From the IMG/VR virus record IMGVR_UViG_2974512537_000001, positions 1 through 64,000 of that record: a DNA stretch of 64,000 nt. One strand, 5' to 3'. The stretch is from a virus. Lineage: Duplodnaviria > Caudoviricetes. Position 1 is the stretch's first letter, and each line of letters opens with the position of its first letter. A program made the translations under genes and the position numbers. Under the pieces are notes generated by a model. That model did no database searches, was not told the origin of the DNA, and was given only the letters and a program-made list of their open reading frames with translations. Shown in pieces: positions 12,261-16,075 of the stretch.

Positions 12261-12703
12261 TATTGTTGAGCCTCCTCTAAGATTACTTTGTCCCAATCTA
12301 GTGGTACGTCATCACGTTGTTTTAGTTCTTCAATTTCTTTTAAAGTAAAACGCGTTTTGACTTTTTCTGTTTCGTCCCCATAGAATAAAAACGGGAGTAA
12401 ATCGTCTACTGGAACGTTAAGATAGTTTCCAAACACTTTTACCTGATATTTCTTTTCTTCCACCCGTTCATCTAGCGGGGTTATTGCAAGTTCTGCTAAT
12501 ATCATATAAAGTTTGTTGCTGAAAGGTAATTTATGGAAGTATTTTGAATCCCATACGCCAACACTGTATTCACCATCACTGCTAACAAAAGCAATTTCTA
12601 CGCCTTTATAGTTAATATTAAAATATCCAGAAAATTCGTCCATGTCAATACTATACTTACTTGATAATGCTTCAATTTTTTTATTTGCTTCACTATATTT
12701 CAT
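12260..12703 (-). CDS. MKYSEA-family hypothetical protein (paralog 1)
   Basis: Same motifs. Confidence 0.85.
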   Translation of the reverse strand: MKYSEANKKIEALSSKYSIDMDEFSGYFNINYKGVEIAFVSSDGEYSVGVWDSKYFHKLPFSNKLYMILAELAITPLDERVEEKKYQVKVFGNYLNVPVDDLLPFLFYGDETEKVKTRFTLKEIEELKQRDDVPLDWDKVILEEAQQ

Positions 12704-13167
12704 TTATCTTCCTCCACTTGATATCCGTCTAGCCATGCACGAGCAAAGGTTTCCGAATTATCTCCTATATACTCGTCAATGTCATCTTCCATAAGCCAAT
12801 GTTCTAAAAATCTACCTAAAGCGTCAATTAAATCTTTGCCCTCAGACTTCATAGCGGTGATATAATCAGCAACATACTGTGGAATCACTGGTAACTCGGC
12901 GTACGTCTTCTTGAATATTTCGTCCGTAATCGGCGAGCGCTTGCCATTAATGTCAGTTACAATCCAATCTCCAACAGATATTCCTTTAGCCAAGTCAAAT
13001 CTAGTAAGAAAATATCGAGCATAGGGTGCTGGGCCTGCTTCTGGCATACTATAATCCTCGGCATAATCTCCCTCGACCACTTCAATGTCATACTTATCAA
13101 CCATCTCAGCACTGCCGTCAAATTGTTCAGCCTTGATAGTAGCTGTTTTACGATAAGTTTTAATCAT
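12700..13167 (-). CDS. DUF1642-like phage protein
   Basis: ELPVIPQYVADYI...FARAWLDGY; N-terminal YRKTATIKAEQFDG domain. Confidence 0.75.
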   Translation of the reverse strand: MIKTYRKTATIKAEQFDGSAEMVDKYDIEVVEGDYAEDYSMPEAGPAPYARYFLTRFDLAKGISVGDWIVTDINGKRSPITDEIFKKTYAELPVIPQYVADYITAMKSEGKDLIDALGRFLEHWLMEDDIDEYIGDNSETFARAWLDGYQVEEDK

Positions 13168-13604
13168 TTCTCTTCCTCCGTTTGGAAACCGTCCAGCCAT
13201 GCACGAGCAAACAAATCTTGATTATCATATGGACGCAACCAACTTAGTATATCGTGAATCATATCAGGTGTTCTGGCATGACCAAACAACACGATATTGC
13301 CAGATAAAGATGTTCCTATGGTAGTATGGTCATGCTTACAGTCAACAAGATAATTTGCAACGTTTTTAGGAATCACCGGAAGTTCGGCATACGTCTTCTT
13401 AAATACGTCATCTGCAATCGCCCAGTGTTCTCCATTAACGCCAGTTGCAATCCAATATCCATTAGTAACAAGCATACTTCCTTCTAACGTTTCCAGATAC
13501 CAGCCACCGCGATATTTAAATAGCCCCAATTTATCTGCATTTTGTTTTGTTCCATCAAATTGTTCAGCCTTGATAGTGGCCGTTTTACGATAAACTTTAA
13601 TCAT
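13164..13604 (-). CDS. DUF1642-like phage protein (tandem paralog)
   Basis: Same N- and C-terminal motifs as 12700-13167. Confidence 0.75.
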   Translation of the reverse strand: MIKVYRKTATIKAEQFDGTKQNADKLGLFKYRGGWYLETLEGSMLVTNGYWIATGVNGEHWAIADDVFKKTYAELPVIPKNVANYLVDCKHDHTTIGTSLSGNIVLFGHARTPDMIHDILSWLRPYDNQDLFARAWLDGFQTEEEK

Positions 13605-13990
13605 TCGTCTTCCTCCAATAGCTCCGGGTTAGTGTGCACGTTGCCAATAACTTCATAATCCATAAATGCTTCACCAAAATCATAGCAAAACCTACTGCCA
13701 GAAAATTCAAATTTGGCTTTATCAAAGATAACTTTATATGGGTTGTCTAAATCATCAGCTAATCTAACTAAATCACCTTCATATATATCTTTGCCGTTCA
13801 TGTCTTTCAGGCCAGTAAATTGTTCAACAACATATCGTTCATTATTTAAGAAATCACCAAAACAAGGCTCATCATATTCAGCAATTTTGCCATCATCATA
13901 TTTCACAAGTCCCCACACCGTATCATGAGCGTCTTGAATATTGTAAAGATAGATTTCATTTTTCTTGTCCCATGCTCTAAACTTAATCAT
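13601..13990 (-). CDS. YopX family protein
   Basis: KFRAWDK...FTGLKDMNGKDIYEGD...EVIGNVHTNPELL. Confidence 0.9.
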   Translation of the reverse strand: MIKFRAWDKKNEIYLYNIQDAHDTVWGLVKYDDGKIAEYDEPCFGDFLNNERYVVEQFTGLKDMNGKDIYEGDLVRLADDLDNPYKVIFDKAKFEFSGSRFCYDFGEAFMDYEVIGNVHTNPELLEEDE

Positions 13991-14287: not shown

Positions 14288-14833
14288 TTATTCCTCCCCC
14301 AATAGTTCCGGGTTCTCGATAATTCTTCGTTTAATAGTACCCCAATCACATTCATAGTGATGTGAAATCCAGTTAATACTTTTACCATCTTTTAAAAATT
14401 TCTTTAGTTCATCTAAAGGTATTTTAACTGTACGGCGAATTTTTATACCTTTTCGCTGACGATTCGCTTTTACAGTCATTTCTGCTTGCTTATCTGTTAC
14501 TACATGTCCTTTCATGTGATGGCTATTGTGTGCCCCTGCAACCATAATTGCCAAATTATCAATTGAATCATTCATCTTATTTCCATCAAGATGATGAATG
14601 CAGAACTCTCTGGGAATATCATTAAGCACCTCGTACTCCATTAATAGCCTATGCACATGTGTTTTTACTCCATCTATTGTTACTGCGGCATAGTTTCCAT
14701 ACTTATAAATGTGCTTAATAGATGTCATAGGCTTTTTAGATTTCCACAAAGAAGCCTTTGTTAGAAGAGATTCATCAACTTCACAATTACAATCATTAAT
14801 CCATTTTATTTTTCTTTGAATTTTAACTGTCAA
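14288..14833 (-). mobile_element. free-standing HNH homing endonuclease gene inserted in a YopX 3' end
   Basis: VHRL...IHHLDGNKMND..DNL...HN; C-terminus ENPELLGEE is the YopX tail. Confidence 0.8.
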
Positions 14834-15191
14834 CTAAATCACCGTCCGTATGCACGTTACCAACGACTTCTAAGGTGTCACTTTCGGAACCAGTTCGGCT
14901 GAAAGAATAAGAATCTAATTCGCTAACAATCCTAACTCGGCCATTTTCAACCTTAACCTGACCAGTTCGTTTATATCCATCGTGAGTTAATAAATGAACA
15001 ATGTCACCGTCAAAAATAATTTCTCCGTTCTTATCTTTAATGTTAGTTGATTGCTCTAAATCCGTTACACCCAAGCTGACCAGTCCTAGTGCTGTTTCTT
15101 GCTGTAACATCTGCTGAATTGTCATAGGGCTAACTTTGCCGCAAGTACCATCGGCCTTTCTAATCCAAGCACGAAACTTTAAATTATCCAT
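14823..15191 (-). CDS. YopX family protein with a replaced C-terminus
   Basis: KFRAW...DKNGEIIFDGDIV...EVVGNVHT then DGDLVDS. Confidence 0.8.
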   Translation of the reverse strand: MDNLKFRAWIRKADGTCGKVSPMTIQQMLQQETALGLVSLGVTDLEQSTNIKDKNGEIIFDGDIVHLLTHDGYKRTGQVKVENGRVRIVSELDSYSFSRTGSESDTLEVVGNVHTDGDLVDS

Positions 15192-15202
15192 TATTTCCTC
15201 CT

Positions 15203-15631
15203 TTAATCATGAGCCACAGCACCATTGGCCGTGAACGAGCCACTTTCAGTTTTGAAGCTATAAACAGTCTGTACTTCGTCTAGCTTCTTGACGTCCTTAA
15301 CTGGCCTCCATACAGGAGCACTATCACCTAAAATGCGTGTTATTACCAAGTCGCCAGCCATAATGTCTTTTGATGGAATCCATTCTGGCCGTGTGTAGTC
15401 TTCCTCCATTCTTTCCATTACATAATAGCGCTGATTTCCAGCAACCTTAGTGTCAGGCTGGAATAAAACTTTTAATTGGTAAATATCATCTGATTTCTCA
15501 CTTGCCACTTTCTGTACTTTTTGGATAGTGCCATCGAGAGTCACAACCTTATCTCTGGTTGCAATATCTTCAATGCTTTTTAACTTGTTATTGACAATCA
15601 CTTGTGTACCAGCCGCAAAACCAATATCCAT
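15203..15631 (-). CDS. stand-alone Hint (intein-like) domain with degenerate catalytic residues
   Basis: GFAAGTQV...KSIEDI..D.V, WIPSKDIMAGD, VYSFKTESGSFTANGAVAHD-stop; RBS AAAGGAGG; promoter TTGACA-17-TACGCT. Confidence 0.8.
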   Translation of the reverse strand: MDIGFAAGTQVIVNNKLKSIEDIATRDKVVTLDGTIQKVQKVASEKSDDIYQLKVLFQPDTKVAGNQRYYVMERMEEDYTRPEWIPSKDIMAGDLVITRILGDSAPVWRPVKDVKKLDEVQTVYSFKTESGSFTANGAVAHD

Positions 15632-15763
15632 ATCACATTCCTCCTTTATTATATGTACAGCGTACCAAATTGGCACGCTTTTGTCAACTATTTTTTTGAA
15701 TAAAATTACCATTTTACACACAATTTTTAATTGATGAGGGGCTAGAAAGTTGTGATTTCTTTG

Positions 15764-16075
15764 TCATTCGGTCTTTTTCAAATCCTCATCTTTGATAAAT
15801 ACTCCATTAACGGTTTTACCTTTTCGGCTTTTAATCGTTTCATAGGCTTCGTCAATGCACTCGTCCATATGCAAGCCGTTCTGTAAAGCGTAAATGGTCA
15901 GCACAACGAAAATGTCGCCTAAGCTATCAATCTGCTTATCACGCCAGCCTTTGTTATGAGCGGTGAAAAGCTCGCCGCATTCTTCACCTAATTTAATGAG
16001 CTGTTTGCTACTATCGGCCTTGTCTAATCCTCGTTCCTTAGCCCAGCCTTCGATTGCTTCAACCATATCCATCAT
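15764..16075 (-). CDS. mazG: MazG-like nucleotide pyrophosphohydrolase
   Basis: KLGEECGEL...IDSLGDIFV motif. Confidence 0.85.
   Translation of the reverse strand: MMDMVEAIEGWAKERGLDKADSSKQLIKLGEECGELFTAHNKGWRDKQIDSLGDIFVVLTIYALQNGLHMDECIDEAYETIKSRKGKTVNGVFIKDEDLKKTE

Follow-up and report, generated by a model that had tools for sequence, protein, structure and literature searches.

Inteins are usually seen as selfish elements, whose fates are splicing, homing or decay. To our knowledge there is one well-studied domestication of an intein, that of yeast HO, and in this case the endonuclease was kept rather than the splicing fold. HO and WHO are independently expressed intein derivatives without exteins that do not splice; they carry an active LAGLIDADG endonuclease between the two Hint lobes as well as a C-terminal zinc finger, and they cleave DNA (PMC7282813). 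Another relevant case is the Arth_1007 intein of Arthrobacter sp. FB24, which is of phage origin, has almost no exteins and does not splice; among the key catalytic residues missing from it is the His of block B (PMC3196547). Hint folds are also used beyond canonical splicing, in the BIL and Hedgehog/Hog domains, and they occur as mini-inteins in phage C5-cytosine DNA methyltransferases (Dcm), such as those of Lactobacillus phage Nyseid (gp072) and of the metagenome contig L005.

The window analyzed here is a stretch of 64,000 nt and part of an 81-kb virus record. The phage is akin to the L. plantarum phages P1 and P2 (Tybeckvirinae, Maenadvirus), and the gene of interest sits in an arm of small early/middle genes of this virulent L. 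plantarum phage. The gene and its downstream neighbor are as follows:

15206-15631, minus strand: coding sequence of a free-standing mini-intein (Hint fold, predicted to be non-splicing) of 142 aa, assigned from the ORF, intein homology, fold and purifying selection; ATG at 15631, last codon 15206-15208
15203-15205, minus strand: TAA stop codon of this gene
14823-15202, minus strand: YopX-family gene downstream of the Hint gene (PF09643, E 2e-11), with its CDS at 14823-15191

An earlier note on this DNA had described a 142-aa ORF without exteins or endonuclease. The ORF is real, and the range of 15203-15690 given for it takes in the ribosome binding site (RBS) and the promoter too. Exteins are absent: three residues, Met-Asp-Ile (MDI), precede Gly4, which occupies intein position 1, and none follow the terminal residue. 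There is no endonuclease insert either, the Hint fold being contiguous over the 142 aa. The protein is acidic (pI 5.2) and has no signal peptide, no cysteine and no extra domain. It is thus free-standing and extein-less like HO and WHO, but these keep an endonuclease and a zinc finger, whereas here nothing is inserted in the Hint fold and there is no Cys. The phage P1 homolog is annotated from the identical MDIG start. A GTG frame of 172 aa and a database annotation of 169 aa would provide longer versions of the gene; we consider both starts unlikely because they run across the conserved promoter described below.

The gene order, MazG-like pyrophosphatase gene, Hint gene, YopX gene, is common to the window, phage P1 and the metagenome contig L004. 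The RBS of YopX (AGGAGG, 15193-15202) starts immediately past the stop codon of the Hint gene, so the two genes are probably co-transcribed. Beyond YopX, between it and the next ORF, lies an HNH_3 endonuclease gene (14288-14833, minus strand) that shows a presence/absence polymorphism: it is absent from the same position in P1 and L004, and a 22-kb silage-metagenome contig skips 14298-14857 and has 234 other letters there instead. This gene is probably a free-standing homing endonuclease insertion. The same arm holds tandem paralogs of DUF1642 (12700-13200 and 13164-13604) and of YopX (13601-13990 and 14823-15191).

The protein was proposed to follow the Hint template from end to end, and both sequence and structure comparisons agree with this. 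Four Hint families of Pfam were matched, each falling short of its gathering score (Hom_end_hint 4.5e-6, Hint_2 3.6e-5, Intein_splicing 6.6e-4, PT-HINT 0.017), while NCBIfam gave no match and a sequence search of the PDB yielded chance matches only. An exhaustive phmmer search over 1.84 billion representatives returned 153 matches at E<=1e-3, nearly all of which are inteins embedded in long proteins. The best match to a true intein (E 1.3e-27, 34% identity over residues 5-142) is a 134-residue mini-intein within a radical-SAM-like protein of 1072 aa. We regard this homology as decisive for the Hint assignment on its own, without the structure model. Radical-SAM-like proteins of 700-1070 aa (P0006, P0007, P0015 and P0017) contain two to three inteins each, some of them near-identical within one protein. 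No fused form of the window protein was found by a word-based search for longer proteins, and the exhaustive search of the representatives found just embedded inteins at an identity of <=34%.

The AlphaFold2 model is all-beta with a mean pLDDT of 95.6 and a pTM of 0.88; it was built from an alignment of 24 relatives that are largely real inteins and is therefore biased towards the Hint fold. The top Foldseek matches in the PDB are exclusively Hint domains of inteins, BIL and Hedgehog proteins (>40 structures, TM 0.72-0.82). They include the gp41-1, RadA, Prp8, RecA, DnaB, GyrA and VMA inteins, the C. thermocellum BIL domain 2lwy, Tetrahymena BIL2 and Hedgehog 1at0. BIL and Hog domains are the best structural matches (2lwy, 6y75 and 1at0, TM 0.73-0.77). 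Unlike the window protein, which has Gly1 and Gln67 and stands alone, they retain Cys1 and the His of block B, are fused to a cargo or secreted protein as part of a larger product, and perform cleavage or conjugation. We conclude with high confidence that the protein is a complete, intein-derived member of the HINT (Hedgehog/intein) superfamily, whose fold is a pseudo-two-fold, all-beta horseshoe. BFVD and the ESM Atlas, the latter queried with the 99%-identical protein P0002, list further short viral proteins of Hint fold (130-170 aa), which we treat as leads only, and we found no description of such short free-standing viral Hint proteins in the literature.

A profile of the family was built, and all matches were aligned to it in order to count the residues at the catalytic positions. 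The positions that differ are:

15620-15622, minus strand: codon of Gly4, at the position of the nucleophilic Cys1 of inteins (150/154 related inteins have Cys there, every family member has Gly)
15431-15442, minus strand: codons 64-67, Ala-Gly-Asn-Gln, at block B (TxxH; Thr in 150/160 and His in 147/159 relatives; Gln67 invariant in the family)
15257-15259, minus strand: codon of Ser125 in block F (VYS; Asn in 85/99 and Asp in 14/99 relatives, Ser in all family representatives)
15203-15211, minus strand: His141-Asp142-stop in place of His-Asn and a +1 Cys (His-Asn in 89/93 and +1 Cys in 84/93 relatives)

The substitutions of Cys1 by Gly in block A, of TxxH by AGNQ in block B and of the terminal His-Asn by His-Asp-stop, all three claimed in the earlier note, are thus borne out by the residue counts. 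The block F change was described there as Asp to Ser; the Ser is present, but the ancestral residue in the nearest active inteins is mostly Asn rather than Asp, and the substitution is better described as Asn/Asp to Ser. Gly4, Gln67, Ser125 and Asp142 do not vary across five family sequences with identities of 51-99%. Position 64 is Ala or Thr within the family, and position 141 alternates between His and Asp (Asp-Asp in P0004), the terminal Asp being invariant. Within cluster 1 there is one S125G variant and there are two H141D variants.

None of the features of class 1 and class 2 inteins is present, that is, a nucleophile at position 1, TxxH, His-Asn with a Cys/Ser/Thr at +1, and an in-frame insertion in a host protein. 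Nor is the protein a class 3 intein. The signature of this class, Trp(B:12)-Cys(F:4)-Thr(G:5) in the block numbering, is replaced by Tyr69, Ser125 and Ala140, with Gln in place of the His of block B. Judged from its residues, the protein would have none of the features that define a functional intein, whichever the class, and is predicted to have lost splicing, and thioester chemistry is impossible since the protein contains no cysteine at all.

Chemistry of another kind could have been retained or newly acquired, in the form of a Ser125/His141/Asp142-type hydrolytic center or of class-3-like autoprocessing that removes the MDI leader. Ser125 occupies the fourth position of block F, which is that of the nucleophilic Cys in class 3 inteins; in the fold it adjoins the His-Asp pair, and both it and Asp142 belong to the invariant residues. 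Yet the His of block B, which is required in all intein classes, is Gln, the W-C-T signature reads Y-S-A, and no C-extein is available for release. His141, moreover, is Asp in P0004 and in the two variants of cluster 1, and Ser125 is Gly in one. We therefore hold such chemistry to be highly improbable.

Stand-alone homologs of 142-144 aa were found with identities of 99% (P0002), 96% (L004), 82% (P0003), 59% (P1 gp14), 56% (P0004) and 51-52% (P0005). They all begin 3-5 residues ahead of the Gly and finish on the terminal Asp. The window protein belongs to a cluster of 20 members, of which those listed are 142 aa long, save one that is annotated as 169 aa. The gene is present in silage, landfill, compost and bioreactor metagenomes from about 15 studies. 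In a tree calculated after removal of long-branch rows the stand-alone family forms one clade (SH-aLRT 97.8). The family is small, with about four lineages that apparently all reside in L. plantarum phages, and contig scans of the viral and genome sets with A1, P0005, P0130 and P0137 gave phage P1 as the sole match.

Selection on the gene was evaluated from three alleles. Relative to P1, dN is 0.29 and dS is saturated, so that the omega of about 0.1 or less is an approximate ratio; relative to L004, omega is 0.18-0.31, based on a pair with just 12 nucleotide differences. Similar values apply to the neighboring MazG, YopX and orf131 genes (omega 0.02-0.34). Differences between the window and P1 are distributed over codon positions 1/2/3 as 38/33/77 (p=8e-6). 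The other two frames of the same DNA contain 9 and 13 stops while the coding frame is open, and alleles that are 59% identical are separated by only one codon-length indel. The gene is maintained by purifying selection. This is what had been expected of an intact, kept gene: homologs at 51-96% identity share the substitutions, dN/dS among the three alleles is about 0.1-0.3, and neither a fold other than Hint nor frameshifted, neutrally evolving homologs were found.

These data bear directly on whether the gene is a neutral relic, i.e., the dead mini-intein of a selfish element that has stayed open by chance or by hitch-hiking. Inteins usually cycle through invasion, loss of the endonuclease and decay, a course into which a relic would fit, and the narrowness of the family is what one would expect of it. 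Arth_1007 also provides a precedent, as this nearly extein-less, inactive intein was described as a pseudogene (PMC3196547). Arth_1007 is a single case, however, whereas the window gene belongs to a family of selected alleles with a conserved promoter. Given the low dN/dS, the strong third-position bias, and the conservation of length, of promoter and RBS and of the replaced catalytic residues, a neutral, decaying relic is very unlikely.

The region upstream of the gene contains the following features:

15640-15646, minus strand: RBS AAGGAGG, 8 nt upstream of the ATG, read from the sequence and identical in L004 and phage P1
15648-15687, minus strand: promoter region, from a consensus scan and near-invariance between the window, L004 and P1
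15682-15687 and 15659-15664, minus strand: first promoter candidate, TTGACA and TACGCT with a 17-nt spacer
15671-15676 and 15648-15653, minus strand: second, overlapping promoter candidate, GTGCCA and TATAAT with a 17-nt spacer, the pair picked up by the consensus scan
15660-15678, minus strand: imperfect palindrome GCGTGCCAA-T-TTGGTACGC in the promoter spacer, unique in the window (0 expected by chance), with half-sites conserved in P1

Over the 85 nt upstream of the Hint gene, the window, L004 and P1 barely differ, whereas the coding bodies of the window and P1 genes are 65% identical. By count, promoter-like hexamers are not enriched in the region (4 found vs 5.3 expected). Hence, of the promoter and strong RBS that the gene had been credited with, AAGGAGG and the near-perfect conservation in L004 and P1 stand in their favor, but the hexamer count does not exceed chance. 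The palindrome may be an operator for a regulator. Parts of the gene are covered by short contigs from two metatranscriptomes, in which DNA carry-over is possible and stretches without coverage carry no meaning. Selection and the conserved promoter speak indirectly for expression of the gene, and these contigs give a direct but weak hint of it.

The comparison with P1 (window 15190-15770, P1 3890-4445 in L001) revealed a mosaic in which the promoter and both ends of the gene (the first 26 and the last ∼45 nt) hardly differ, and the flanking YopX gene is 91% identical. The conserved end extends from the last 45 nt of the gene into the YopX RBS. Such conserved ends around a divergent body suggest that old alleles have been swapped via the conserved flanks.

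With respect to the origin of the gene, most close matches are inteins inserted at the catalytic motif of C5-cytosine DNA methyltransferases (GSPC/intein/CQxFS). The nearest active intein is the LAGLIDADG-bearing Dcm intein on contig L005, in which 43% of the N-lobe and 40% of the C-lobe residues match the window protein. The exteins around it hardly differ from Nyseid gp072 (Lenusvirus), a protein from a phage of the same subfamily and host. Comparing L005 (601-2058) with Nyseid (4773-6893 in L008), near-identical exteins enclose two distinct LAGLIDADG inteins at one and the same Pro-Cys site; the inteins start with CFVSGT and CSPAGT, respectively, apparently as a result of intein allele replacement. 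The phage Dcm mini-inteins and the window protein have homologous sequences, the Hint fold and the order of blocks A, B, F and G in common, and their phages share L. plantarum as host and Tybeckvirinae as subfamily. They differ in that the Dcm mini-inteins lie in frame in a methyltransferase, with Cys1, TxxH, a terminal His-Asn followed by Cys, and often LAGLIDADG, none of which the window protein has.

One could imagine that the gene is what remains of a methyltransferase that decayed in place, but we rejected this candidate. Searches with PF00145 and with the Nyseid Dcm found no Dcm gene or fragment in the 81-kb genome. In Nyseid, Dcm is flanked by the exonuclease and MazF genes, and the syntenic region of the window is at 31.5-36.3 kb in the plus-strand arm, whereas the Hint gene is at 15.2-15.6 kb in the minus-strand arm. 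The Hint gene is thus an ectopic, independent copy of an intein-coding segment and not the remnant of a host gene.

The relationship to the Dcm inteins raises the most interesting of the alternatives, in which the protein serves as a weapon between phages. As a dead Hint it would block splicing of the Dcm intein in competing Lenusvirus-type phages by lobe or domain swapping, leaving these without methylation, or it would block homing. Ancestry and a shared host suggest this: the closest active relative is that Dcm intein, carried by phages of a sister genus in the same host, and the window phage itself has no Dcm. Mini-inteins are able to form domain-swapped dimers (PMC8175363). However, the identity to the Dcm intein is just 40-43%, and cis-inteins, which fold while being translated, are hard to inhibit in trans. 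To block homing, the protein would need an endonuclease or a DNA-recognition domain, and it has neither. We consider interference with Dcm inteins unlikely.

The target might also lie in the host, as in the earlier proposal of a decoy or inhibitor of Hint-containing or protein-conjugation defenses. The location of the gene among early genes of unknown function would suit such a role, as would the likeness of the fold to BIL domains, some of which conjugate proteins (2lwy and 6y75 being top Foldseek matches). We searched 301 sampled Lactobacillaceae genomes for potential partners. PT-HINT and the profile of the family itself were both found in 0/301 genomes, and Intein_splicing was found in 5/301, the two strongest matches containing in-frame stops. 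Hint domains are thus rare in these genomes and an obvious host Hint target is lacking. The proposal is therefore not supported, and we give it only the faintest chance.

Binding to nucleic acids or a regulatory function would be another use of a Hint domain. In large inteins and in HO, Hint domains take part in recognizing DNA. HO and WHO act on DNA as free-standing intein derivatives (PMC7282813). P0130, a free-standing relative of the window protein, is a basic protein (pI 9.5) that has retained a LAGLIDADG-like domain. The window protein, by contrast, is acidic and has no endonuclease or DNA-recognition insert, and even in P0130 the LAGLIDADG motif is without its acidic residue (WLLGKYLIKNY). 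A function of this kind appears highly improbable as well.

The conserved remodeled residues, the possible operator and the probable co-transcription with YopX lead us to favor a non-enzymatic binding role. Thus, our preferred reading is that the gene encodes a domesticated, free-standing mini-intein that is kept by selection and acts as a non-catalytic binding module through the former extein cleft, and to this reading as a whole we give about an even chance. The ancestor would have been an intein interrupting a phage C5-cytosine DNA methyltransferase at the catalytic Pro-Cys motif. All residues needed for splicing have been lost along with the exteins and the homing endonuclease, and the Hint beta-fold has been kept complete. 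A conserved sigma-A-type promoter of its own would drive the gene and probably YopX with it, and the product would act stoichiometrically. The former extein-binding and active-site cleft would have been rebuilt with Gly1, Gln67, Ser125 and the free C-terminal Asp carboxylate, and it would hold a peptide, a protein or a small ligand. Our confidence in the mechanism, i.e., in binding rather than catalysis and in the cleft as the binding site, is low.

In order to place the family among related proteins we compared it with other free-standing forms. P0130 has 325 aa, starts with METK-GFMRGT, has HGNQ at block B and retains the LAGLIDADG-like insert; its cluster has 24 members on contigs of up to 85 kb. 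P0137 has 218 aa, starts with M-GFIAST and has TSTQ at block B. Both share the replacement of Cys1 by Gly and of the block B His by Gln with the window protein, and in all three forms Met and 0-3 further residues precede the Gly. In the free tree P0130 and P0137 are placed beside different Dcm inteins, and P0130 shares an insertion of roughly 10 residues with one intein subgroup. A tree in which all Gly1 forms were forced together was not rejected (p-AU 0.65, with 94 columns and long branches).

A database cluster already exists for the window protein, PHROG 21587 (function unknown), which it matches at E 7.5e-49 and P0005 at E 2.2e-26. The match spans only positions 572-703 of the 706 in the profile; the first ∼570 positions may stem from a long protein whose C-terminal part is a Hint domain, or else be an artifact of the alignment. 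The 706-aa Dcm of Nyseid was rejected as a core member of this cluster, as it matches only at E 7e-7 and via its intein.

It is conceivable, though rather unlikely, that phages have repeatedly domesticated methyltransferase inteins into chemically silenced Hint proteins, with at least three forms of 142, 218 and 325 aa. These would then constitute an unrecognized class of effectors with a possible anti-intein or ligand-binding role in phage competition. That the same Gly1/Gln pair recurs in P0130 and P0137 suggests that the disarming of inteins may follow a rule. The window protein is also a potential natural, stable, cysteine-free and splice-dead mini-intein for structural and engineering work. 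The Hint gene is a bare splicing fold without chemistry or host protein, yet it is under selection and has its own promoter. If it is functional, phages would be able to reuse the Hint fold as a scaffold.
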